A DNA stretch of 64,000 nucleotides from Cyanidioschyzon merolae (GCA_000091205.1 AP006487.2); one strand, 5' to 3'; shown: positions 2,321 to 61,955, counted from the first letter of the stretch. Made by a program: numbers and translations. Notes: generated from the letters alone by a model not told the origin.

Positions 2321-3129
2321 ACCGGGACCCAAACAGTACCGAAGAAATCCCGTTTGGGTAAGGTGAGAAAGCGCAAGTCGAGATCATCGGTGACCAAGTC
2401 ATAACCCGAAAATGGTTTTATTACGCGCTACCCGAAGCCTTTACATTCAAAAGTTACAAAGCGTCTCATATATTTCTTTCCTTTTCGGTCCTTGAAGCCT
2501 TCCGGGGGAATCATTCCAAACCATCAAGTATTGTTACAAAATTGTTGTCTCTGTTTCATAGCGAGTTTTTCCATACGCGTTTTCCAGTGATTTCGAAGAC
2601 TACTTTGTCTGCGTTATGCACAGACAAACCTGAGCTGGCCTACTCATAGCGAAACTACAGAATGTGCGGAAGAAAGCCGCCGTCCGGTCGCTCTGCAGCG
2701 AGTCGATGCACTAAGTTCGTCTCTTGTGTACATCGGCCCCAGTGCACATCTCTCTGAGTGGTATATCAAGACATGCCACATCGTTTCGCTCTTGTCAACG
2801 AAAATGAGGATGAGTATGCGTGGCAGAGAATGCGAAAGTGTGCAGTGACACAATCGCTGGGCTAAAGCATGCTGGCAATGAACGTGTTGTAAATCTTCTA
2901 TTTCTGCGAAAAATCATCGACGACATGCAAATCGAAGTTCACCGCGTGCATCGACGACACCGTCGTTGAGGCCGACTTCGAGAGTCACGCCGATACCTGC
3001 ATGCAGAGCGGCTCATCCGAGGAGCGCGTTTCCTCACACATGGAGGCGCGTGATAGTGCTCCAACTGCATCTAGTATGCCATCATTGAGGCTGACGGCGA
3101 CGGCGACGGCGACGGCGACAGCGAGGCTG

Positions 3130-3770
3130 ACATATGCACACGTATCACGTCCGCGTCCGCCAGCGCATCTACCACGTTCAGACGCATATGGTGGCTCCCC
3201 GAGTGCATCGACGACATCATCATCGACGGCGACGGCGAGGCCGACATGTGCACACGAAGCAGCTCATCCGCCACAAGTGCATCATCTAGGCTCAGGCGCA
3301 TGTGGTGGCTCCCCGAGTGCATCGACGACATCATCATCGACGGCGACGGCGAGGCCGACATGTGCACACGAAGCAGCTCATCCGCCACAAGTGCATCATC
3401 TAGGCTCAGGCGCATGTGATGGTTCCCCGAGTGCATCGACGACATCATCATCGACGGCGACGGCGAGGCCGACATGTGCACACGAAGCAGCTCATCCGCC
3501 ACAAGTGCATCGTCTAGGCTCAGGCGCATGTGGTGGCTCCCCGAGTGCATCGACGACATCATCATCGACGGCGACGGCGAGGCCGACATGTGCACACGAA
3601 GCAGCTCATCCGCCACAAGTGCATCGTCTAGGCTCAGGCGCATGTGGTGGCTCCCCGAGTGCATCGACGACATCATCATCGACGGCGACGGCGAGGCCGA
3701 CATGTGCACACGAAGCAGATCATCCGCCACAAGTGCATCGTCAAGGCTCAGACGTGAGCCATATAAACCA
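3130..3770. repeat. Tandem minisatellite, 114-bp unit x ~5 (38 codons per unit), flanked by (GCGACG)n-like simple repeats
   Basis: Unit starts at 3184, 3298, 3412, 3526 and 3640 (gcat[a/g]tggtggctccccgagtgcatcgacgacatcatcatcgacggcgacggcgaggccgacatgtgcacacgaagcagctcatccgccacaagtgcatc..). Both strands give long repeat-driven ORFs (3001..3945 +, 3071..4054 -). Confidence 0.9.
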
Positions 3771-5476
3771 TACGACGAAGAAGTTGTTGTCGTTGTGGTT
3801 GTTGGCGAGGCCGACGGCGACGGTGAAGGCGACGGTGAAGGTACTAAGATCGGATGCAAGACGGTGCGGTCCTGATTTATCCACAACGGCAGAGCAAGCA
3901 CGTTGCAACTGCAGAGAACAGTGCAGATCACGAACACACAGATGATATTCTTTGCAATCGACATTTTGCTGTGCTGTAACTTACGTGCCGTGTGCGCGCC
4001 CTTTGTAAACTCCAACCACTGTAGTATATATGTGCGTTGCACGCAGCCGCTCAATAATTACGCGGCGATCGCGAGGCATGCGTGCTGTCCCTCCCGTACA
4101 GCGAACAGCGCACTACGCCAGGATCCGCCACGTGTGGATCCGGAGGCTCGATGCGCGGGGGAATCCTGGTGAGTGAATCGCGGCGCGGGAGAAATCGCGG
4201 CGGACACGTGGCAGCGCTCTCCTCCACGAATGCAGCTGGCCGTGCAGCAGATGATCCAAGTGATCTTTTAAGTATTTAGACATAATGGTCAGCTTCATCA
4301 CTGTTCCCTGCGAAGGCCCTGCAACAATACGTAGATGGGGAGAACAAGCATATTTGCAGACGAGATCTCGTACGTCGAGTAGTCCCGAAAACTATAAAAG
4401 TCTTCGTATGGAGCATTTATGGCAATTGTAAAGGACCTTTCTGTGAGTGAGTGAGTGGGTTCAGACCTGCGTAACGCAGTACCACCTCTCGGGGAACAGG
4501 TAGGTTGCTTTCCAGTGAGTGGCGCATTGTGATGTAAAAGGCTGGAAGCTTCAGTTAGCGTGCGCGAAACTCAAGAGACTTCAGATCTGATAAAACACGA
4601 CTTTGCAAGGTAAACGACACGTATTTGCGCCTGAGAGAAAAGCCACCCGCATAATCATTGCGCTGAAAAATTGCCGATACACGACATATCTCGGGGGCAC
4701 TGCTCCCGGAACAGCACCTCCTGGAGGCCAAGACCGGTGGATTCTAGGGGCTGAGTCTGTCGAAAGCATTCCATACGAAGATGCGTTAGGCTTTAGATGC
4801 GCTGCGTCCAGGTAAGGCAGCCGCACCGCAACCTAGATGGCGGCAGAGATCGTTAGGATGCCTGGAGCATCCGATTGCAGCTTTGGGAATGCTTGAAGTG
4901 GACACTAGCACATGCGTGCCAGCGGCTAGGCCTCAAGACAGTGATTTGATGTTGCCATATGAAATAGTAATTTCCTATACTTCGAAAGAAAGCCGCTATC
5001 CTGCAAGTTTTACGCCTCATCTTCCACAGAAACGAACGCGTCTCTCCAATGGCTCAGTGAGTTAGTTCTTCTTCGCATTCTTTTAGAGTATAGGTCATTT
5101 TGCACGCCGCTCCGTTCGACAGCATGGAGCAACGTCTTGCGAGGAAGCAGCAACGCTGATTAACAGCCAACGTGACACGCAGGCATCGAGGCCATACCTC
5201 GGTCTCGACCGCCGCTAATGGTTTTTCTGTCGAATGGCTTCTCGTACCTGTATACTGGCCAGTTTCCGACGTTGCAGCACACAACGCCGCGGAACAGACG
5301 TCCGTCAAGGCGACTGATGCATGAATACGAAACAGTTGCTTCGCAATGTTGGGCAATGGCCGCGATGCAAAATCTTCCAGAAACAACTCAGCGGTAGTAA
5401 AGAAAAGGAAGATCCTGCGAGTCATAAGACGAACTGATTCTCTATAACCTCAAGCCTTCGTTTTGGCTGTTCGAAC

Positions 5477-9752: not shown

Positions 9753-11489
9753 CTAATTTGCGGACGGGTGATAAGCTTCAGCAAGACACAAAAGTCTTTC
9801 AGCTGCTGTCGCCAATTCTTGCCGCGACCAAGGATCGTGCGGCAGATTCGGCAGGCAAGCACGACACCAGAGTTGCAATGCCCAAGAATGGATATCGGCT
9901 CCGGTGCTGCGAGACTGTTCCAGCCTCGTCCTGCAATGCAGAAAATGCACGAAACTTTTCCCTTGATCATCGTGTCTCTCACCGTGAGCTGCATACCGTC
10001 GAATTTCGCGTGGAAATGGATGCGGTAGCATTAGGACCGTCTTTGATTCAGAAGTAAAACTGCTTTTTTGATTCAAAAGCTCATCTATGGAGGCGGTGTC
10101 CAAGGCACGGCAAAAGTTGCTGAGAGCCTCTGGTAAGGTAGACTCATCATTCGCAATAGGATGCTTGACGAAGCCAGGCAGCCGTTGTTTCAGTCGCATA
10201 CACCATCCCTTATCGACGAATTGCCGGAGCCAGCCTGCCGTGGATAGATTGCAAAGATCGAAGTTCTGCGTCGGTACGTCATTGCTCCCGGCAGAGTTCC
10301 TAAACAGCGAAAATGGTGAAAATCCGGCCCGCAAATCGAATATGCAACGATGGCGAAGGCCCAAAAGGTTACCGCTCATTGCGACTCGAAGCCTATGCTC
10401 CAGCGGATGGGCGTCCAATATTCTATTCACAGCTAGCGCGGTGGCAACACTCGCAGTCCAGCCAAACGAATTACAAGTAAGATCCTCGAAAGACAGGCCC
10501 CGTGCATCTAGCGTCCACAGCCGTTCGCGTTGCGTATTCCGCAGATTCCTCGCACGAACAGGCAAGTATGCGATGTGATCATTTTCCCCCGAAGCACTCG
10601 ACGTGTACAAGCTGCTAACAAGTAGCGCCTCTCCAATTTGCCCCACATTGACATCCAGCTTCGGATCAATGGAAAAGATAAAAAAATTCTTTTTCGTGCC
10701 GAAAAGATCCGAAAGTTCTTCAACGAGCCCTGATAATACACCACCATTCCCTGCGTGCTCCAGGGACCCATGGATGTCAAATCCCGTGAGAGAATCACAG
10801 GTTTCCGCGAAATAACGTACTGCATCCAGGAGCTCTTCGGATTGTTTTTTGCTTTGCACGGCATCGTAGCCCCTTTGAAATAACTCTAGGTCGCGAACAA
10901 ACTGGTTCGATAATGGTGTGTCTGCGATATCGGGAATTCTGGTTTCAGCAAACGTGGTCGAGGATGCCTTTGTAGACTCCAGATCGTGCAGCAGAGTCTG
11001 AGTTCGAATTTTTGACCGACTACTCAGGGGGAACGCTTGGAAGTCTGTCCAGTGCCGTACACTTTCCTCGAAATTATACGCGTCCGGTGATTTCACCGTT
11101 CCGGCCTGTCGATCAACCTGAAAAGCATGCCTTCTGTCATGTTGGCTGGAAGAGAGGCGTTCAGTCGGACCCTTCCATAACGTCTTCGAAATTGGATCTT
11201 CGTGCGGTTCGAGTGCCCTGCTGATAGGAGCTTCACTGCAATCAAGTGAACAGTGATCCAGTGCAACAAGTCTCGGCACGACTTGGCCAGCAGTAGGTCC
11301 TTCATCTGGCTCCCAGAAAAACTCCCGACGCGCTGCCCAAAACCTTTCCTCGACAGACGAGAGACATTCGTGAGAAACCCCACCACTCGAGACCAGAGTG
11401 CTATTGTAATATAAGAGGTTCCAAAAGTGTGACCCGCAGTAGCTTGCAGCTTCTCCCAGCTGTACTACAACAGAGTTTTTCTCTACCAT
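9753..11489 (-). CDS. Misato/DML1-like tubulin-superfamily protein
   Basis: The N-terminus VVVQLGEAASYCGSHFWN matches the Misato/tubulin GTPase N-terminal signature (Misato ..LTLQLG.....G.HFWN). A length of 578 aa is typical for Misato/DML1. Confidence 0.55.
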   Translation of the reverse strand: MVEKNSVVVQLGEAASYCGSHFWNLLYYNSTLVSSGGVSHECLSSVEERFWAARREFFWEPDEGPTAGQVVPRLVALDHCSLDCSEAPISRALEPHEDPISKTLWKGPTERLSSSQHDRRHAFQVDRQAGTVKSPDAYNFEESVRHWTDFQAFPLSSRSKIRTQTLLHDLESTKASSTTFAETRIPDIADTPLSNQFVRDLELFQRGYDAVQSKKQSEELLDAVRYFAETCDSLTGFDIHGSLEHAGNGGVLSGLVEELSDLFGTKKNFFIFSIDPKLDVNVGQIGEALLVSSLYTSSASGENDHIAYLPVRARNLRNTQRERLWTLDARGLSFEDLTCNSFGWTASVATALAVNRILDAHPLEHRLRVAMSGNLLGLRHRCIFDLRAGFSPFSLFRNSAGSNDVPTQNFDLCNLSTAGWLRQFVDKGWCMRLKQRLPGFVKHPIANDESTLPEALSNFCRALDTASIDELLNQKSSFTSESKTVLMLPHPFPREIRRYAAHGERHDDQGKSFVHFLHCRTRLEQSRSTGADIHSWALQLWCRACLPNLPHDPWSRQELATAAERLLCLAEAYHPSAN

Positions 11490-24491: not shown

Positions 24492-26231
24492 TCACGCACT
24501 CGCAGGTTCACACCGCAGCGCATTCGACCCGAAATGTTTCTCCAACTTTTTGAGAGCCTCAGATACCCAAGTAGTGAATGTCGCGGAATTGTCACCTGCG
24601 AGAACCAGAAGTGCTGGTCGGATCACCCACAGATACCATTCTTCTGGACTCCTCTTGCCTCCAGAGTCGACGACCATCCGGAGCTGTGCAATTTTCTGAC
24701 TTAAAAGCTCCATCCATTCTTCTACTGTCATCGTGCCTGCAGCGTTCGCGGCGGCAACGGTCACGGCAGACGATTCGGTGTATGCATGGTGACGAGCGGA
24801 GCCGTCTAATACGCGCCTGTACACCCGCTGCTTTTGCGTTTGCTGTTGTGTCGTCACTGAAGGACAGTGACGCGTCTCCACGATGCTCTCGAAAGGCGTC
24901 GTGGTGCTTAGCGTGCGGGTCTGCTGCTGGTGATGGTGCTGCTGCTGCTGCTGCTGCCGTTGCATTCGTTTGCGGGACTCGCGATGACGCCGGCAAAGTG
25001 CCTCAAATTCACGCGAAAAGCGGGTTAAACGATTTTCAACCGGTGCTTCTAATGACTGAATCGGGGAGAGTGCTTCCTGACTTTTCCCAGTAAGCGATAA
25101 TTCGGCATTCTCGTGATTATCCAGATACGAGTCGGGGGTCAAGTTGATGTCAAAGGCCTGTAGGAATGATTCGAGAAGTCTCTCACCGGAGACACTCACG
25201 GTCCAAAGACTCAGAGATTGCATCGCGGCGGCAGCACCGGTGGTGTCCTCAGGTCCCTCGCATAACGTTCGAAGCATTGCCAGCTTTTCTTGCCAGGAGA
25301 GCATCGCCTCGAAAGCGCGGTACACAAACAGCATGCACGCCTCATCCCAGCGGAGCATTGTGGCTGTCGCTCGATCGACTGCAGCTGCGTCCATGAAGAT
25401 CCTACTCCGCGAGTAATCTAGCTTGGAGATGAGTAATCGAGCGAAATGTTGGAAGAGCGCGGGGTCCGTGTCCTGGATCATACGGCACGTCGTCAGCTCG
25501 CTGTCCTGAATGGGTGCGGTACCATTTCCGATTTGCGTCGCCAAGCGTGGAACTAGTACAGCTTCCACAATGCAGCGTCTGCACGTCTCTAGGTTGCTAT
25601 GATGTGGCTCCGGGATGCGTGACCCGCTGCTTTCAGACCATTTCCAGACACGAACAATGTCTCTGAAAATGGCATAGAGAGGAGCCGTCTGACGGTCGCT
25701 CCACAGCGGCGCGACCATTCGAAGCGTTTCCATGGAGTCTCGGGCTGCGAGAGCGTTACCGAAGCAGAGTAGCTGCTTTAGATAGGGTAAGATGAGCTCA
25801 CGCAGTTCAGGTTTAACGCTGGTAAAGCGAGTCAGCGAAGCAGAACTGTCGCGGGACCACGCTTCCAGGCGGCTTCTCGTCTCTGTTAGGGCGCTGACGA
25901 TCTCTGTGAGCTCTGGTGACGGGTCCATGACACGGGGCTTTTCCACACCTCGTGCTTCAGTGTCAGCAGTTTCGGACTTGAAATACTCTTCAAGAAGTTG
26001 AGGTAGGAAGAGGGCCTCAACCTGTAAGCATAGCGACTGCAGTCGCGCCGATACTTGCTCAGCCTCCCCAGTCGAGTGCCGTAAAACGAACGCGAGCGCT
26101 CCAGGAAAACAGTCAGCGGCTTCTGAGGCTCCCAGCACATGCTCAAGTTTGCCTATCGTTACTTTCAGAAGCTCGATATCCAGCGGCACTGAAACAGCAG
26201 CACAGCGGTTTTCTAGCTGTGTGTTTTCCAT
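24492..26231 (-). CDS. Hypothetical protein (579 aa) with Q/H-rich low-complexity insert
   Basis: Long uninterrupted ORF with coding-like composition. QQQQQQHHHQQQ is encoded by a (CTG/CTGCTG) run near 24930..24960. I could not recognise a domain. Confidence 0.4.
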   Translation of the reverse strand: MENTQLENRCAAVSVPLDIELLKVTIGKLEHVLGASEAADCFPGALAFVLRHSTGEAEQVSARLQSLCLQVEALFLPQLLEEYFKSETADTEARGVEKPRVMDPSPELTEIVSALTETRSRLEAWSRDSSASLTRFTSVKPELRELILPYLKQLLCFGNALAARDSMETLRMVAPLWSDRQTAPLYAIFRDIVRVWKWSESSGSRIPEPHHSNLETCRRCIVEAVLVPRLATQIGNGTAPIQDSELTTCRMIQDTDPALFQHFARLLISKLDYSRSRIFMDAAAVDRATATMLRWDEACMLFVYRAFEAMLSWQEKLAMLRTLCEGPEDTTGAAAAMQSLSLWTVSVSGERLLESFLQAFDINLTPDSYLDNHENAELSLTGKSQEALSPIQSLEAPVENRLTRFSREFEALCRRHRESRKRMQRQQQQQQHHHQQQTRTLSTTTPFESIVETRHCPSVTTQQQTQKQRVYRRVLDGSARHHAYTESSAVTVAAANAAGTMTVEEWMELLSQKIAQLRMVVDSGGKRSPEEWYLWVIRPALLVLAGDNSATFTTWVSEALKKLEKHFGSNALRCEPASA

Positions 26232-29974: not shown

Positions 29975-30295
29975 GATATCGGTAATCATCCTGTCATCGC
30001 TGATCCTTGGTCCCTATCAAAGATCCATCAATCAAGAAAACTCGCGATAGTCCGCCGATATCGAGAGTCATCCTCAAACCACGGATCCTTGGTCCCTGTC
30101 AACGATCCATCAATCAAGAAAACTCGCGATAGTCCGCCGATATCGAGAGTCATCCTCAAACCACGGATCCTTGGTCCCTGTCAACGATCCATCAATCAAG
30201 GAAACTCGCGAAAGTCCGCCGATATCGATCGTCATCCTCTAAGCACGGATCCTTGGTCCCTGTCAACGATCCATCAATCAAGAAAACTCGCGATT
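29975..30295. repeat. Tandem repeat, 82-bp unit x ~3.7, followed by (GCC)8 at 30303..30327
   Basis: The unit gatccttggtccctgtcaacgatccatcaatcaagaaaactcgcgatagtccgccgatatcgagagtcatcctcaaaccacg recurs at 30002, 30084, 30165 and 30247. Confidence 0.85.
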
Positions 30296-34760: not shown

Positions 34761-36789
34761 AGCTACTTTGTGGAATCCTTGGAAAATTAGTATTATCGAC
34801 TGTGTGGGATCCCGAGAATGAGGATCCCTCACTGCTGCTTGAAACGAGGTCATGCGGCGGCACGAAACCGCCAGTGGTCAAGAGCTTGGATAAGCGTTGC
34901 GCGCTGCGTAGACGCCTCCGCACGAGCCACGACGCTCCTAGCCGCACCAGAGCGATGACGAGGACGCCTTGCATCGGTAATGAATAGTTCTGCTGCAGTT
35001 ACATCTTGCCGTGTACAGAGACTCAGCGGTTACGTCACTTGCGCTGGAGAGCACTGCTGGCGCTCAGATACTCGCGTTTTAGTCTTAATTATCCCGCAGC
35101 GTTTTTTGCTAATCCCACGTCAACACGAGAGAGAACGAACTCGAACTCGCTAACTCGGACGAACACACGAATGTTTGCGTTTTCCGAATGTCATGAATAC
35201 TAGCCTTAGAGGGTTTTTGTGCGACTGCGTCCTTTTCTTCTCTCTCATCTCCGGCTCTCAGTACGTCGCCCTCACCTATCTCCCCAGTTCCCTTGCCAGC
35301 AGTCGAAGGATACTGGAGAGAGCATTCATGTCCCGATTTCGCAGCTTCCGGTTGCTGTCGACACGTTTCGTGCGCATACGATTGTTGCGATGAATTCCTC
35401 GCTTACCTTTTTCATCTTGTTTGCGTACGCTTTCGGTGCGCATTTCGCACTTGCATCAACTTGCTCTGGGAAGGTTCCCGTAAATGTCCAGGACATATCC
35501 TTTTTCACGTGCCGCCATGTGGGGCGCGAACACTCGCTTCGTGGCCGTTTAAGTGCTCTTGATTGGAACTGAAGTCTTGCGTGGATGGCGTCTGCCGTTT
35601 TCGGACTCGGCACAGTAGCCTGTGATCGCACGCCTCAGCGGGGCGATTCACGAGGCGAGTACGCTGTCCGCTGCATGCGCTGGCGCATCTTGTTCCATTC
35701 GGCAGAGGATTTGTGGTACGTAATGTTGTGTATGATGAAACAAGCAGCGGCGGGTAAATCCAGACCGGAGAACCAGTCGTGTGGTATCGATTTGCATGCG
35801 CTCCTTTTGTACAGCTCGGTGACGCACCCGCCAATGACTTCGATCACAGCCATGACACAAGCCCGAGTCGTTGACCGTTTTCTATGCAAACACAAGAGAC
35901 GCTTGCTTCTCGGCGCATGTCCCATGAAAGGCGTCATTCTGCTGCGGAATCCGCTTCCGTCCATGAACTAACACAAAGGAGGATTTTTCTTTCAAACGAA
36001 ATCTATTTTTTGAGGTGACGATTTCAGTTAAATTTTGTGATGCGCTTTTAACAAAGTAGTCGAAGGGCGACATCAAGTCACGTTTTCCATGTTCCACGCA
36101 GCGATTAGCATCCCTGCGCCCACGAGTTGCCTCGAAACAAAGAGATTGACAACATGATTCATGGATGATTTCAGCACGTTACTTGACCGGTAAAATCAAA
36201 ATTGGAGGCTTGCAAGTATAGAATGAATAACAATATTGCTTATTTTACAAACCTTGGCTTGACGGCAACGAGAATCGTCCTGATTCCGATGACGTTACGA
36301 ATTCCAGCGGCAGACTCGAATGAGCCATGCTGCAGTGGAGACTAGGAGTCCTCACTCTACTTGAGGATTTGAAATCTCTTATTGATGCGCTTCGAATGCC
36401 AAACCAGTACATGTAAAAAAGTTCGGAAAAAGTCGCAAGGCAGAAACAGAACGTTCCGCCCAGCACTCCGTGCTAGTCAGACACCGGTTTATCGAGCAAC
36501 TGTACATCCCGCGCCACGGCGAGGCGCGCGTTTCGCTGCACAGAGCGAAATCTGCGATGCGCGGCAGATCGCTGCGGCGGTTATACTCGCGCGCTAATAC
36601 TCGCACTCTTGTACTCGCCCAAGTACACTTCTGCAGTCATACTTGCGTCGTTACAGTTGTGCAGCGTCATTTGCTGCAAAACGGAGGCGATCCTTATTCG
36701 ACGGACTCTGTTGAAGCAACCGCTTGAGGTGTTATTTATTTACTGCAAAACGCGAACACTGTAAGGCTCCAATACTACGAAAGCCATAA

Positions 36790-48522: not shown

Positions 48523-49939
48523 ATGCTGTGTTCTCGTGGCACTGCCGTTCAGCGTCTTCGTGGACTAGCGGGACTCTTTCACAGCGTTCGTCCGCTCTCC
48601 AGCACGGGCAGCGCAGTGCAAGACGAGGATGTTTACATTCTTTCTTTCGCAAGAACGCCTATCGGCTCTTTCGGTGGCAAGCTTGCTCACTTGACAGCCG
48701 TTGAACTGGGGGTTATTGCGGTGAACGCTGCACTCGCGCGAGCTGCACGTCTGGAGCCGGACCTGGTCACGGACTGCTACCTGGGGCAGGTGCTTACAGC
48801 TGGCTGTGGCCAGTCGCCTGCACGTCAGGTTGCACTCCGAGCCAACTTGCCGGAAACGGTACGCTGCCTCACAGTCAATAAGGTGTGTGCGAGCGGCATG
48901 AAGGCAATCACTTTAGCGTATGATGCAATCCGGCTGGGACACGCTGAAATCGTTGTTGCCGGTGGCATGGAGAGCATGAGTAATGCACCCTTCTATCTAA
49001 TGGAAAACGAGCAGTTGTTGAGTCGGCGCAAGTATCTCATTCGAGGCCGCCTCGCTCGGGAGCTCGGCAACCGCGTGCTCTACGACGGACTGCTCCTGGA
49101 CGGGCTCCTGGACAGCTACAGCCGGCGGGGTTCGTTGAAAGGCGCATCAACGGCAGTTGGCGCTGAAGAAGACAACGCTGACGCAGGCTATCCCATGAGT
49201 TACTACGCGGATCGTTTGGCGTCGAACATGGGTATTCTGCGTGAAGAGCAGGACAACTTTGCCGTGCATAGCTACTCGCGCGCCGCCAAAGCGACTGCAC
49301 AGCAGCTTTTTGCCAAAGAGATCGTGCCCGTAGAGCTGCCTACCGAGTTTGCGACGCACTCATCCCCGGAACGCTTCTCGGACTCTAGTAGAACTACGTC
49401 TGGGGGCCCGGACACCGAAACCCATGGCACCATTGTGAGTCCCGAGCACCTTGCCCTGCTCAAGAGCGATGAAGAGCTCGAACGACTCGAGCAGATTGAT
49501 CGGATGCCGAGGCTGGCGCCGCTGTTTCCCGGCGCTCGCCCGTCGGGTGCCAAAGGTGGCCCAGAGGGACCCGCTGGCGGCACGATCACTGCAGGAAACG
49601 CTTCTAAGCTAAGCGACGGAGCAGCAGCGCTGGTCTTGGCCTCAGGACGAGCTGTTCGTCGATATAACTTGCTGCCGCTAGCGCGCATGCTTTCGCATGG
49701 TGATGCTGAGCAAGACCCGGAACGCTTTGCCACGACACCGGCGTTGGCGTTACCGCTCGCGCTCTCCAGGGCCGGCCTGAAGCTCTCGAACCTCGACTAC
49801 CTGGAGATCAATGAGGCCTTCGCCTGCGTCCCCATTATGGTACTAAGGTTGCTTGCCGCAACACATGCAGCAGAGGGAGCTTTTCTGGATCCAGTACGAG
49901 CGCGCGCCGCAGCTGCTGTGAGCGCAAGCGCTTCCAGTT

Positions 49940-49977
<38 letters not shown>

Positions 49978-50277
49978 CTTCCTCGTTCGTTGGGATCAGC
50001 AGGTACGGGAACCAGTGCTGGTGGCGTCTCTGCACCAACGGGTCTCAGCTCGAGTGCCGCTCTACCGGATATCATCAGCAGTGAGCACGTCAACGCCTGG
50101 GGTGGTGCGATTGCGCTCGGGCACCCATTGGGCTGCTCTGGAGCGCGCATTGTGGTGACCCTCACGAACATCCTGCGCAGTCGGACGGCTCGGTACGGTG
50201 CTGCAACGATCTGCAACGGCGGCGGTGGCGCGACTGCCCTAGTTCTCGAGCGGGTAGATATGACGAGCGGCGGTTGA
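48523..50277 (+). CDS. ACAT: Acetyl-CoA C-acetyltransferase (thiolase II) with N-terminal presequence and low-complexity insertions
   Basis: The core matches thiolase: ILSFARTPIGSFGGKL, VNKVCASGMKAI, NEAFA and GGAIALGHPLGCSGARIVVTL. An R-rich N-terminal extension suggests organellar targeting. A poly-Ala run is encoded by (GCA)12 at 49941..49976. Confidence 0.9.
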
Positions 50278-58079: not shown

Positions 58080-60620
58080 TTACTTGCGGTACGCCATGCG
58101 CCGCCAGAGCGCAGCTGCGTCGCTCGGAACATATGGTGCTCCAGGGCGTCGTCCGTGCCGCCCTAGTGTCGACGGGGCGTACATTGCCTGCCGAGCCGCC
58201 TGAATACCTTCGTGAATGGTCTGCACTAAACCCGAGGCCAACAGTATGATTGCAGCGTTCAACACAATGGTTTCGCGGAGCAATACCAGGTGCTCTGAAG
58301 ATAAACTGCTGGTCTCTGCTCCGACAGCGTTGTCGTCGATACCCGTATTCGTGAGTACCTCCTCGAGGAGTCGTGCATTCTCCACGGCATTGGCACCAAT
58401 CACAGCAGCTAAATCGCCCTTGCTGTACATCTGGTAGCGATGCGGTTGAAGAGGTATCTCGGCGACCTGGGCGATCTCCTCGCCGTCTGCATTGGGGCCG
58501 CGGTAGCAAACCTCGCGCACAGAATTCTGTCCCCAGGGTAGAAGACAGCCCAGATGCTGCTCTCCCGTTGGAGTGTCCTCGTTTGATGCCTCTGGCACCA
58601 GACAAGTGAAGAGCCAGGCTCTTACTGGACGGAAGAACGCGACTGCGTCCGTCAGCGCCTCCAGTTCTGCAGTTCCACTGGGAGCATGGAGACCCGGCGC
58701 AGTCACCAAACGATCAAGGTCGTAGGCATTCAAGAGCGGAGCCACTAAATCTCCCAAAAGCGGTGCTGGCGATGTTGCCACATCTTCCGCGGTAGCCGTT
58801 TCATTCAGTAGGAGTCGAATATCGCGCTTCGCGAGACCTATCGGTGATCGATAAAGCGCTATTCGCAATCGATCAAAAGTTGCACAGGACTCGGCTAGAG
58901 TCGGATAGGGGTTCAGCCCAACAGCAAGCAGGAAAGGGGCATAAGTCGTGCTCAACGTGCTCCGCCAGTCGTCGATGATACAGACGCGGGCACCTGCTGA
59001 TGTGGCAACGACGGCAGCGCCCAACATAATATGGGGAATCATGGCGTTGGAGAAGAGCAGCCCTACTATGGTGGATCTGGAAAGCGGCCCTGAAGGCTGT
59101 GGTGTCCGTGGATGAGCACTTATGTAGGCGGAAAGCTTTGGCAAGTGCGGAAGCAGCAACTGCGCGAGCGCTGCTCGTGCAGAGCCGTGCAAGACGCCAT
59201 CTGCAGCCATCGCGAGAATGCACAGCTTCCGGGCAACTGCGATGGACTCTGCTCGCGACAGGGCCGGAAGCAAGTGCTTCTGTTCATTGGACGATGCCGG
59301 GGCATACGCGCCTGACTTTCCTGCATACTGATATTGTTCGTCAGCGCTCAGCAGTGTAAACAGGCAGCGGGTATCTTCAATACTCAACGGCAACTGGCGA
59401 ATGATAGCCTCGTAGAGATCGGAGACGTCTGCGAACCAGCGGCGCGGCACGGGAGCCGTCTTGTTCGCTATTCGGTCGCTGTGCTGCCTCTGCAACAGTG
59501 CTTCCAGGTGGAAGCGCAGGCGAGCCCACACCATACCCAGAGGCGATGTCAGCGTTCGCGCAGCTCGCTGGTACGCCGGCTTCTTCGCTGGTGGACGCAA
59601 CGGCTGCGGAAACGCTCGCCATCGCTCTGCAAGCTCCTCTCGACCAAGGAAGACGCTGTCTAGTCGCTGTTGTAACTTCCAGAAAAGTCCAAGTATGATG
59701 AGGGCGATGGCACTGATCCAGAATGCCGGTACCGGGAACCGTCCGCCCGGACGGATTGTTTCCAACCCGGGGAGTCGCAGCGGCTCAACGGTAACCATAC
59801 GCCGCTCTCCTTGCCAGGCTCGTCCAGCATGCTCCATTCGTGCCTCATCTGCACGGTCGAGGAAACGTAAAGAGTATCGAACAAGATGACGGGATCTCAT
59901 CCACAGGTGTCTGCATGCGTAGGGCGTTACCCGACGTGCATCAGCAAGGATTTGCGTTGATGACTCGCGACCCCGTCCAAAGCGGTTGCGGGTGTATGCA
60001 TGTTGGCCAGGAAGACGCGTAGGTGTGTTGCTGATCCAGCGCACCAATGGAGCAGAAAACTGAAGTACCGGGAAACCCCATCGAGCCCGCAACGCCCGCG
60101 CCATCCCCAAGGAGCGACCTGTCTCCACATCCGAACGCTTCGGGAAACCATGACACCTATCCAGACTAGTAGACAGAAGCGTTGACGTACGCGCACCCGT
60201 CTCGCTTCTGGAGAGCATTGCACAGTGTTGGCACATGGAACAGGCGTTCGACCGGGGCCTCACGCCGGGCGGCATAACAGGATGCCTGCGGCTCGCAACG
60301 ATACCACTATCCGTTTCGGTGGCTGCTCCTGTATCCAAAAAGGCGCTCCAGGCGACAGGACGGTTCTTGGTCCATCGGTTTGGTATCAAGCTTCCAGTTG
60401 TCGGCCTCACGGTAGTGATTTCCTCTTGTTGACGCTTTGATACTTGCTGCTGCACCATGAAAGCTCGCTGCCGACAGCCACACAATGCAGAGGCCTCCTC
60501 AGCGCAGACAAACAATACCCTCCGACAGAAAGCAAGGTCGTTACTAGCACTACGAATGGTAAACAGTAGTAGTTGTTGTTGTTGCTCTCTTGACTGGGTT
60601 TGAAAAAGCTTTTGCGTCAC
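58080..60620 (-). CDS. Hypothetical protein (846 aa) with C-terminal glycosyltransferase-family-3 (TrpD/YbiB-like) fold
   Basis: The C-terminal block GDLAAVIGANAVENARLLEEVLTNTG...EHLVLLRETIVLNAAIILLASGLVQTIHEGIQAARQAM resembles the C-terminus of anthranilate phosphoribosyltransferase-like proteins (..vLlNAAaaL.vaG....l.eG...A.e.i.sG.A). The N-terminal 400 aa are unrecognised. Confidence 0.35.
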   Translation of the reverse strand: MTQKLFQTQSREQQQQLLLFTIRSASNDLAFCRRVLFVCAEEASALCGCRQRAFMVQQQVSKRQQEEITTVRPTTGSLIPNRWTKNRPVAWSAFLDTGAATETDSGIVASRRHPVMPPGVRPRSNACSMCQHCAMLSRSETGARTSTLLSTSLDRCHGFPKRSDVETGRSLGMARALRARWGFPVLQFSAPLVRWISNTPTRLPGQHAYTRNRFGRGRESSTQILADARRVTPYACRHLWMRSRHLVRYSLRFLDRADEARMEHAGRAWQGERRMVTVEPLRLPGLETIRPGGRFPVPAFWISAIALIILGLFWKLQQRLDSVFLGREELAERWRAFPQPLRPPAKKPAYQRAARTLTSPLGMVWARLRFHLEALLQRQHSDRIANKTAPVPRRWFADVSDLYEAIIRQLPLSIEDTRCLFTLLSADEQYQYAGKSGAYAPASSNEQKHLLPALSRAESIAVARKLCILAMAADGVLHGSARAALAQLLLPHLPKLSAYISAHPRTPQPSGPLSRSTIVGLLFSNAMIPHIMLGAAVVATSAGARVCIIDDWRSTLSTTYAPFLLAVGLNPYPTLAESCATFDRLRIALYRSPIGLAKRDIRLLLNETATAEDVATSPAPLLGDLVAPLLNAYDLDRLVTAPGLHAPSGTAELEALTDAVAFFRPVRAWLFTCLVPEASNEDTPTGEQHLGCLLPWGQNSVREVCYRGPNADGEEIAQVAEIPLQPHRYQMYSKGDLAAVIGANAVENARLLEEVLTNTGIDDNAVGAETSSLSSEHLVLLRETIVLNAAIILLASGLVQTIHEGIQAARQAMYAPSTLGRHGRRPGAPYVPSDAAALWRRMAYRK

Positions 60621-60679
60621 TCAGGTACCGCTGCGACGGTCTCGAAGCGACGTGCTCTAGAGAAAGCCCTGCAGGAGCC

Positions 60680-61250
60680 ACACGACTCGAAAAAAGAGCA
60701 AGTCGTTACGATGAAGCGTTACCTGCGTAACGACTAGAAACAGCTGCTTCTGAGCGACACGACTCGAATAAAGGGCTAGTCGTTACGATGAAGCGTTACC
60801 TGCGTAACGACTAGAAACAGCTGCTTCTGAGCGACACGACTCGAATAAAGGGCTAGTCGTTACGATGAAGCGTTACCTGCGTAACGACTAGAAACAGCTG
60901 CTTCTGAGCGACACGACTCGAATAAAGAGCAAGTCGTTACGATGAAGCGTTACCTGCGTAACGACTAGAAACAGCTGCTTCTGAGCGACACGACTCGAAT
61001 AAAGGGCTAGTCGTTACGATGAAGCGTTACCTGTGTAACGACTAGAAACAGCTGCTTCTGAGCGACACGACTCGAATAAAGGGCTAGTCGTTACGATGAA
61101 GCGTTACCTGTGTAACGACTAGAAACAGCTGCTTCTGAGCGACACGACTCGAATAAAGGGCTAGTCGTTACGATGAAGCGTTACCTGCGTAACGACTAGA
61201 AACAGCTGCTTCTGAGCGACACGACTCGAATAAAGGGCTAGTCGTTACGA
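60680..61250. repeat. Tandem array, 77-bp unit x ~7.4, each unit containing a perfect 12-bp inverted repeat (ctagtcgttacg ..15 nt.. cgtaacgactag)
   Basis: Unit starts at 60680, 60758, 60835, 60912, 60989, 61066, 61143 and 61220. The units are nearly identical; the first is slightly diverged (aaaaagagcaagtcg). Confidence 0.9.
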
Positions 61251-61457
61251 AGAATCGCCTCCCAAAAGGAGCTTCCCCGGGAACGCTTTACCGTGTAAGG
61301 CTTCGAACGGCTGAGAACGAGCCCAGGCGATACGCGTTACCGCCACCACTTGCATGTGTGCTCCGCGTGGCATCTCCAGTCGATGCTTCTGCACTGCTGT
61401 TCCAAAGTCGTTACACATGACGGTTTTTTCTGGGGGTACTTGTTGCCTTCCTAACAT

Positions 61458-61955
61458 ATGGGTAAACGGGTGTTCGTAACAGTGGGTACAACGCGCTTCT
61501 CGGGACTCGTTCAGGCGCTAGAGAACGAGCAGGTTCTCCGGTCGTTGCGCAGGGCTTGGGACTGCGACACACTGGTGGTCCAGCACGGATCAGGTCCAGC
61601 ACCAGCGAGAGCTTGCATCGAGCGTCATGGTATGACCCTGGAAAGTTTTCCGTACTCGGATTCATTACGGGATGAACAGGAGAGAGCGGACCTCATCATT
61701 TCGCACGCTGGTGCGGGCTCGATCCTCGAAGCACTCGAACATGCTAAACCGTTGGTTGTCGTCGTCAACGAAAGTTTAATGGATAACCACCAATGGGAAC
61801 TTGCCCGTGCACTTGCAGAACGAAAGGCGCTCGTCGCTACCACGTGCGCTGAGCTAGGGCAGGCGTTGGAGCAGGCTCGTCGTCACCGGCAGCAGAGACC
61901 GTTGCCACCGGCTTGTCGTGGGGTGCTCACGCGAGTTCTCTTCGAAGAGAGCTGA
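61458..61955 (+). CDS. ALG13: UDP-N-acetylglucosamine transferase subunit ALG13 (GT28 C-terminal domain)
   Basis: The match is VFVTVGTTRF ... LIISHAGAGSILEAL..KPLVVVVNESLMDNHQWELARAL. Length is 165 aa. Confidence 0.75.
   Translation: MGKRVFVTVGTTRFSGLVQALENEQVLRSLRRAWDCDTLVVQHGSGPAPARACIERHGMTLESFPYSDSLRDEQERADLIISHAGAGSILEALEHAKPLVVVVNESLMDNHQWELARALAERKALVATTCAELGQALEQARRHRQQRPLPPACRGVLTRVLFEES

Follow-up and report, generated by a model that had tools for sequence, protein, structure and literature searches.

Cyanidioschyzon merolae is a model alga known for its almost repeat-free genome, and a sexual cycle as well as several strains are now known. Between two diverging genes of this alga lies a tandem array of 77-bp units, and the question arises what this array is, how it came into being and whether it does anything for the genes on either side. 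An original prediction had proposed a regulatory repeat, a nucleosome-positioning or insulator-like element, or a replication-slippage-prone minisatellite. The window, i.e. the whole stretch of 64,000 nucleotides that was analysed, was compared with metagenome contigs carrying the same locus and with two relatives of C. merolae.

The array is likely to be a minisatellite (VNTR) of recent origin that is near-neutral and changes through slippage or unequal exchange; it was encountered at no other locus and in no lineage besides that of C. merolae. A segment of 77 bp, in which a 12-bp inverted repeat was present from the outset, was amplified head-to-tail, and the resulting array has been continually reshuffled. 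What the original prediction had observed was confirmed in part, and its interpretation was supported in part.

In the literature searched, neither the array nor any nuclear minisatellite of C. merolae was found to be described. The paper on the finished C. merolae genome stresses the small number of repeats and transposons in a gap-free sequence (PMC1955436), and a resequencing note deals with SNPs and small indels alone, from short reads (PMC7291098). Work on the centromeres describes a single CENH3 region per chromosome and gives no coordinates for the chromosome of the array (PMC3744952); as regards a centromeric or satellite repeat, the array has 49% GC and measures only 580 bp.

Position of the array and its neighbouring genes

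The sequence was read directly at 60400-61700, and Tandem Repeats Finder, applied to the 64-kb window, placed the array at 60675-61254 with a period of 77, 7.5 copies, 97% matches, no indels and a score of 1097, which bears out the predicted array of about 7.4 units of 77 bp at 60680-61250. Seven full units and a partial unit of 41 bp follow each other head-to-tail, as was also seen when the units were set in register and typed, and no strand is assigned to the array. There is no deviation from the 77-bp register, the 580 bp corresponding to n x 77 + 41. The unit-type map of the window array, which is that of C. merolae 10D, reads JCCEBBC. The GC content of the array is 49%. As further observations, the ratio of observed to expected CpG at 60675-61254 is 1.70 as compared with 1.12 across the whole window, and the hexamer AATAAA is present on the plus strand in every unit.

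A recent expansion had been proposed on the grounds that only the first unit was diverged. This reason was inaccurate, as unit 4 has two of the changes of unit 1 and units 5 and 6 have another one. The expansion itself is nevertheless a reasonable assumption, because the copies are 97% alike and the relatives lack the array.

The right neighbour on the plus strand (61458..61955) encodes an ALG13-like protein (Glyco_tran_28_C, E = 2e-24) identical to C. merolae 10D BAM79316 / XP_005535602. The DR1/NF-YB-like and CDC6-like proteins of the window are likewise identical to their 10D counterparts (BAM79314 and BAM79308, respectively), and the genes are intron-free open reading frames (ORFs) in mixed orientation, as expected for C. 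merolae. A strand-switch region of the trypanosomatid type was rejected, as gene orientation is mixed and the organism is C. merolae. The left neighbour on the minus strand (58080..60620) is an ORF of 846 codons, the C-terminus of which is weakly similar to Glycos_transf_3.

Between the end of the array and the ALG13-like ATG (61458) there are 203 bp, in agreement with the roughly 200 bp originally given. On the other side, an ATG had been assumed at 60620, 60 bp from the array, and this was wrong: the codon is a GTG that serves as mechanical ORF start, and the first in-frame ATG follows at 60458. The array thus lies between diverging ORFs, with a distance of 203 bp to the ATG of ALG13 and of 217 bp to the first ATG on the other side. 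The first ~70 residues of the left gene are unconserved in its orthologues, the conserved part starting near residue 240. As Met241 is invariant in a three-way alignment, just before the conserved YSLRFIDRADE block, the true start may lie far downstream of 60620. Of the left-flank sites that vary in natural populations, eight out of 15 are found within the 270 bp next to the array (60405-60625 region), as compared with seven in the following 1,730 bp of the ORF, which suggests that the SNP-dense stretch is unconstrained and is either non-coding or a fast-evolving N-terminus. With an N-terminus both unconserved and rich in SNPs, the real intergenic region would measure at least ~1 kb, of which the array makes up 580 bp.

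The protein of the left gene was found in the homology search only as JGI metagenome calls (P0034) and in the two relatives. The same search yielded no NCBI protein of C. merolae 10D for this gene, although those of the neighbours (BAM79314 and BAM79316) are on record. Eight versions starting with an ATG were looked up, the one from the first ATG (M55) in the gene-position index, which lacks the NCBI chromosome, and seven later ones in the protein collection, and none is on record.

Distribution of the unit

Many JGI metagenome contigs encode precisely this ALG13 protein, and ten of these were fetched by looking up this protein. Three additional contigs were obtained by scanning a metagenome collection for an exact 24-mer, giving 13 metagenome contigs with the unit. 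In 13/13 contigs, and hence in 14 assemblies together with 10D, the unit was found at the same locus with the same flanks. Further copies were not detected in the 64-kb window (best nhmmer hit E = 0.1), and no exact match was obtained in viral contigs or prokaryotic genomes, for which reason a viral or prokaryotic origin was rejected. A high-copy satellite dispersed through the genome, which would have spoken against the original prediction, was seen neither in the window nor in the metagenome contigs, viral contigs and prokaryotic genomes.

The sharply delimited inverted repeat in the unit, with CTAG at both ends, might suggest a mobile element, namely a MITE or the hairpin-and-CTAG end of a Helitron-type element, that was amplified in tandem. 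In Helitrons, the 3' end bears a hairpin with CTRR behind it, and tandem arrays can arise from ends of this type. An origin of this kind is hardly to be expected, however, as a dispersed copy was found neither in the window nor in the metagenomes or the viral and prokaryotic collections, and there is no target-site duplication and no transposase or Rep gene nearby. Moreover, the module of 39 bp is far shorter than any MITE, and C. merolae was reported to have extremely few transposons (PMC1955436).

Variation among near-identical haplotypes

The flanks of the contigs are 99.2-99.8% identical to 10D. Assembled array lengths of 118, 195, 272, 349 and 580 bp were found, always n x 77 + 41 and corresponding to 1.5-7.5 copies, of which the short ones are lower bounds, as they probably stem from short-read metagenome assemblies that may collapse 77-bp repeats. 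A length polymorphism between isolates, which was to be looked for according to the original prediction, may be present as judged from the assembled copy numbers, but the short versions may reflect such a collapse. Only two assemblies, the window and contig L011, resolve a long array, both with 7.5 copies and 580 bp. Contig L012 terminates inside the array, and the map of L013 is a subsequence of that of L011. Copy number probably differs among near-identical wild haplotypes.

The chance that the array is an assembly artefact and absent from the organism is close to nil. Tandem repeats misassemble easily and the metagenome contigs disagree on copy number, but the repeat stands at the same place in 14 independent assemblies, the array of the independent contig L011 likewise measures 580 bp, and the 10D genome was finished without gaps (PMC1955436).

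In 47 full units, 11 unit types with 10 variable positions were distinguished. The resulting maps read JCCEBBC in 10D, GDAHDCI in L011, ABBD in L004, L008 and L010, GKA in L006 and FFCE+ in L012. They fall into at least four families, and the flanks differ by 0-13 sites in 2.8 kb. L003, L006 and L008 are 1-3 flank SNPs apart, yet their arrays read A, GKA and ABBD, and the window and L011 differ in unit order at an equal number of 7.5 copies (JCCEBBC versus GDAHDCI). Differing unit types on flanks that are 1-3 SNPs apart go beyond what a collapse in assembly can produce, and the array thus turns over faster than its surroundings. Identical units occur next to each other (CC, BB, FF), and units at the edges are more diverged. 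The variant units are interspersed in an allele-specific way that evolves faster than the flanks. Among the readings originally offered, that of a replication-slippage-prone minisatellite is supported by these findings, as the array was seen at no other locus in the sequences searched, is absent in syntenic relatives and differs in unit order among wild haplotypes.

The locus in relatives and the frequency of minisatellites

Orthologues of the left gene share 55% identity in Cyanidiococcus yangmingshanensis (contig L014) and 53% in a metagenomic relative (contig L015), and both relatives keep the order ankyrin - ALG13 - left gene - DR1. The divergent intergenic regions of the two, with 366 and 328 bp, contain no minisatellite. 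A progenitor of the unit was not recognisable in them: alignment to the collapsed C. merolae region gave 40-49% identity, which is essentially random, and blastn-short found only 10-12-mers. Without the array, the intergenic region of C. merolae measures 419 bp from the first ATG, which corresponds to the ancestral size. Judged from these comparisons, the array arose after the C. merolae lineage had split from both relatives.

Two additional, unrelated minisatellites were found in the window, one at 3110-3751 (114 bp x5.6, 94% matches) and one at 30002-30294 (82 bp x3.6, 95% matches). The contig of the metagenomic relative contains another two, at 4443-4583 (51 bp x2.8) and at 11027-11286 (90 bp x2.9, 100% identity), where the matching places in C. 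merolae are free of such arrays. This makes five arrays in about 92 kb, roughly one per 18 kb and each of them lineage-specific, which indicates that minisatellites arise and disappear here as a matter of routine. An inverted repeat is absent from the units of the other four, and the hairpin is thus peculiar to the 77-bp array.

Some features of these repeats may be mentioned separately. The period of the array at 3110-3751 is a multiple of 3, and the array is open on both strands (ORFs 3001-3945 on the plus and 3071-4054 on the minus strand). Its plus strand encodes a repeat of 38 residues rich in Ser, Thr and Ala (…GGSPSASTTSSSTATARPTCAHEAAHPPQVH…), the exact ORF of which is absent from the protein collection. 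The 82-bp minisatellite is directly followed by (CGC)8 and a 16-nt near-palindrome (CATGGCGCCGCCGCCG/CGCCGCCGCCGCCATG) up to 30330 and lies within a stretch of ~5 kb (26.2-31.3 kb) without an ORF of at least 160 aa. In the metagenomic relative, the 90-bp minisatellite is located 137 bp upstream of a Tcp11-like gene. Trinucleotide runs in the window comprise (CTG)12 at 24921-24957 in the ORF 24492-26231 on the minus strand and a perfect (CAG)12 at 49940-49976 in the ORF 48523-50277 on the plus strand, both of which are probably homopolymeric amino-acid tracts.

The intergenic regions of the relatives contain short elements of their own. Positions 5676-5716 of L014 from Cyanidiococcus yangmingshanensis, about 40 bp upstream of the ALG13 start, are occupied by a perfect (GAAC)10 microsatellite, which reads CGTTCGTT… in the direction of ALG13. 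In C. merolae, AGTCGTTAC stands in a roughly equivalent position; the likeness could be a coincidence or might reflect a shared TCGTT-type element. Both relatives have in common an E2F-like string, TTTCCCGCG, between ALG13 and the left gene (about 5780-5795 in L014 and about 5790-5800 in L015), in place of which C. merolae has CTTCCCCGGGAA at 61271-61282. An E2F site was rejected, as TTTSSCGC occurs at chance level in the window and is absent from this intergenic region of C. merolae.

The inverted repeat and its folding

A module of 39 bp, CTAGTCGTTACG-n15-CGTAACGACTAG, was found seven times at no more than one mismatch, as compared with 0.00 expected occurrences. In composition-matched shuffles of the 77-bp unit, 0/5000 reached an arm of 12 bp, and the probability of an arm of at least 10 bp was 0.0008. 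Because none of the shuffled units reached 12 bp, the 12-bp inverted repeat is a real feature and not due to chance. The original prediction of a perfect 12-bp inverted repeat in each unit holds for units 2, 3 and 7 (3/7), whereas the arms are reduced to 11 bp in units 5 and 6 and to 10 bp in units 1 and 4.

None of the modules is assigned to a strand. Unit 1 (60699..60737) has 10-bp arms due to a CTAG>CAAG change and a 15-nt spacer, and the same CAAG variant with 10-bp arms is present in unit 4 (60930..60968). The perfect arms of unit 2 (60776..60814), CTAGTCGTTACG / CGTAACGACTAG, enclose the spacer ATGAAGCGTTACCTG, and perfect 12-bp arms are also found in unit 3 (60853..60891) and unit 7 (61161..61199). 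In units 5 (61007..61045) and 6 (61084..61122), a C>T change in the first base of the right arm leaves a G.T pair and arms of 11 bp. The last, partial unit retains the left arm alone (CTAGTCGTTACGAAGAA, 61238..61254), as the array stops within the spacer. From reading the sequence, unit 2 further contains an inner palindrome, CGTTAC-CTGC-GTAACG, with 6-bp arms and a 4-nt spacer, which overlaps the spacer and the right arm of the module.

A single-stranded unit folded only slightly better than its shuffles (z -2.1 as DNA and -1.3 as RNA), and two units folded far better (z = -5.1), as expected from repeated complementary arms. The right arm is complementary to the left arm of its own unit, leaving a loop of 15 nt, and to the left arm of the next unit, leaving a loop of 38 nt. 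Pairing of arms between units was observed directly (inverted-repeat pairs I5-I7, I10 and I11).

Classical cruciforms have short loops, and long non-palindromic spacers disfavour extrusion. To call the units cruciform-capable was therefore overstated, as the spacer of 15 nt is non-palindromic and the fold of one unit is only modestly above that of shuffles. A long near-perfect palindrome of the cruciform type, with little or no spacer, is not present in the array, where arms of 10-12 bp flank a 15-nt spacer. Extrusion would be costly because this spacer is non-palindromic, and from the energetics of cruciforms it is unlikely to be frequent in the duplex DNA of the array.

These findings bear on a structural role, in which cruciforms or positioned nucleosomes (two units measure 154 bp) would separate the two promoters as a boundary. 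Such a boundary would fit the presence of seven inverted repeats at regular distances and the single-stranded DNA folds, with z of about -2.1 for one unit and -5.1 for two units against shuffles. It is nonetheless very unlikely: each extruded unit would leave 30 unpaired bases in its 15-nt spacer, which would be unfavourable both energetically and kinetically, the arms are imperfect in 4/7 units, and the relatives do without the array.

Search for a function

Three out of 24 positions in the hairpin arms are variable as compared with seven out of 53 elsewhere in the unit, so that the arms are no less variable than the rest, as far as this can be judged from a low-powered test on few changes in a homogenising array. 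The changes in the arms (T26A, A34T and C52T) are all uncompensated. Selection on the hairpin thus receives no support from the test for constraint.

Each unit contains two inverted copies of GTAACGACT and one GCGTTACC, which amounts to three CGTTAC cores per unit and 22 in the array. Outside the array, the half-site GTCGTTAC occurs five times as compared with about 1.3 expected occurrences. One isolated half-site on the plus strand (60537..60544) lies 131 bp to the left of the array and may have remained from the progenitor sequence or from a former copy. Another one on the plus strand (61407..61414) is found on the right side, at 153 bp from the array and 44 bp ahead of the ATG of ALG13, and its context AGTCGTTACACATGA resembles AGTCGTTACGATGA of the unit. 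An additional copy of GTCGTTAC at 36647-36654 is found 143 bp upstream of the CDC6-like ATG (36790). In the unique flanks, three half-sites of the CGTTAC type occur in 800 bp, which is in the top 1.7% of windows. This local density is compatible with relics of the progenitor and with a local cis-element alike. As a general promoter motif, CGTTAC was rejected, since it is not enriched in non-coding DNA (0.37 per kb as compared with 0.36 per kb in coding DNA).

The regulatory, nucleosome-positioning and insulator-like readings originally offered received no positive support from the analysis. A regulatory role of the array would, as far as sequence comparison allows, be improbable. In its most explicit form, the array would be a promoter VNTR, that is a homotypic cluster of sites for a sequence-specific factor, and its copy number would tune or insulate both divergent genes. 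Consistent with such an arrangement are the position in a divergent intergenic region, the non-random inverted repeat and the additional GTCGTTAC or CGTTAC sites of the unique flanks, among which one precedes the ATG of ALG13 by 44 bp. The same applies to the spacer variants T50C and C52T, located within the 4-nt spacer of the inner palindrome or bordering on it, and to the copy number of exactly 7.5 in both long assemblies. Yet a tunable promoter element of this kind seems unlikely, given that CGTTAC is no commoner in non-coding (0.37) than in coding DNA (0.36 per kb), that the arms are as variable as the rest of the unit with uncompensated changes, and that relatives with the same gene pair have neither the array nor such a cluster of motifs. 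In addition, the arm centres are 27 bp apart, which would be an odd geometry for a dimeric factor, and no match to a known cis-element of C. merolae was obtained, the CmMYB1 paper that was searched giving no motif. That a putative nuclear factor binds GTAACGACT / CGTTAC, also as single sites near both flanking genes, and that the number of units sets their expression or mutual insulation, would be rather improbable as well.

Products of the array were considered at the level of RNA and protein. The matches to Rfam in the array region were at chance level only, with none at gathering level in the whole window, and ARAGORN found no tRNA in the window, including permuted tRNA; a permuted tRNA gene would be seen, because a tandem array presents it in normal order. 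A coding repeat was not found, as each of the six frames is interrupted by 4-6 stops in 77 codons and the period cannot be divided by 3.

Tandem genes for box C/D snoRNA-like RNAs on the plus strand were weighed in particular. Each unit would give an RNA of ~59 nt of the form AGUCGU-UA-CGAUGA ... CUGA-GCGACA with a terminal stem of 5 bp. The arrangement of these elements is similar to the family consensus, and units 5 and 6 can be aligned to snoZ40 by cmscan from end to end, including the D box, a C-like box and the terminal stem. C. merolae does possess C/D snoRNAs, 11 of them intronic (bioRxiv 10.1101/2025.12.01.691491). There is nevertheless very little chance that the units are such genes. 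With 15.8 bits (E = 7.9), the snoZ40 alignment is no better than chance and falls short of the gathering score of 50. The C box CGAUGA has one mismatch to RUGAUGA, and half of it lies within the 12-bp hairpin, the main feature of the predicted fold. In 13/47 units, G5C disrupts the 5-bp stem GUCGU/GCGAC without compensation. A guide would have to pair with rRNA or snRNA over 10 nt or more; with E. coli 16S/23S, which served only as a proxy for the conserved rRNA core, the putative guides upstream of the D and D' boxes paired over at most 8 nt (longest 6-8) and no better than shuffled sequences. No counterpart exists at orthologous loci.

Proposed mechanism and significance

As a young, near-neutral minisatellite, the array would be changed by replication slippage and/or by unequal exchange between sister chromatids or homologues together with gene conversion. 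Pairing of single-stranded arms within or between units could stabilise slipped intermediates that are out of register, and such intermediates would favour the gain or loss of whole units. The only certain effect of the array on its neighbours is to space their upstream regions apart in steps of 77 bp. A specific function is not required for any of the observations, and the array is regarded as selectively near-neutral. Against near-neutrality stands the non-random inverted repeat, which implies that something specific created it, and a protein-binding palindrome is conceivable; the local density of CGTTAC in the flanks could also be a real cis-element.

A hypervariable locus with allele-specific unit maps would serve as a strain and population marker in C. 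merolae. It also means that a streamlined genome still makes and turns over intergenic minisatellites within less than 0.5% flank divergence. C. merolae allows precise editing by homologous recombination. If the regulatory reading were true, the locus would be an easily engineered test case for the control of a divergent gene pair by a promoter repeat, and if the number of units set the expression or mutual insulation of the pair, red algae would thereby have their first described functional promoter VNTR.

Comparison with known systems

CRISPR arrays show a superficial likeness to the array, in which a palindromic module of ~39 bp alternates with segments of ~38 bp. They were rejected, as the intervening 38-bp segments are identical and not unique spacers, and the host chromosome is eukaryotic and nuclear. 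Tandem clusters of box C/D snoRNA genes occur in trypanosomatids, Euglena and plants. They resemble the unit in order of length, in C-like and D boxes, in a short terminal stem and in being confined to one strand, but the unit remains below the Rfam thresholds, has an imperfect and buried C box, has no guide in the proxy test and is unconserved in relatives.

The fragile sites FRA16B and FRA10B and the PATRRs are AT-rich near-perfect palindromes with little or no spacer, often kilobases long. Repeated self-complementary units and a structure of the single strand that promotes instability are common to them and the array, whereas the latter has 12-bp arms, a 15-nt spacer and a balanced composition. 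For yeast, Vinces et al. are said to have found in 2009 (Science) that unstable tandem repeats in promoters alter nucleosome occupancy and expression. Like these, the array is located between divergent genes of a compact genome and is variable among close relatives. The yeast repeats are mostly AT-rich with short units and a measured effect on expression, whereas the array has a 77-bp unit and 49% GC and is known from its sequence alone.

The closest likeness is found in minisatellites or VNTRs with interspersed variant repeats, such as human MS32 and CEB1 and those in intergenic regions of yeast. The array resembles them in that units within the range of 10-100 bp, highly identical to one another, follow each other head-to-tail, and in the sequences searched one locus only was seen. 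The array also shares the allele-specific unit orders, diverged edges, identical adjacent units and turnover faster than the flanks that are characteristic of the MS32/CEB1 type. As compared with this type, its copy number is small (at most 7.5) and only probably polymorphic, as the assemblies may collapse repeats. It differs from most minisatellites in the 12-bp inverted repeat within the unit and in its host, which has one of the most repeat-poor eukaryotic genomes. Apart from the internal inverted repeat and the position between diverging genes, the array is an ordinary minisatellite.
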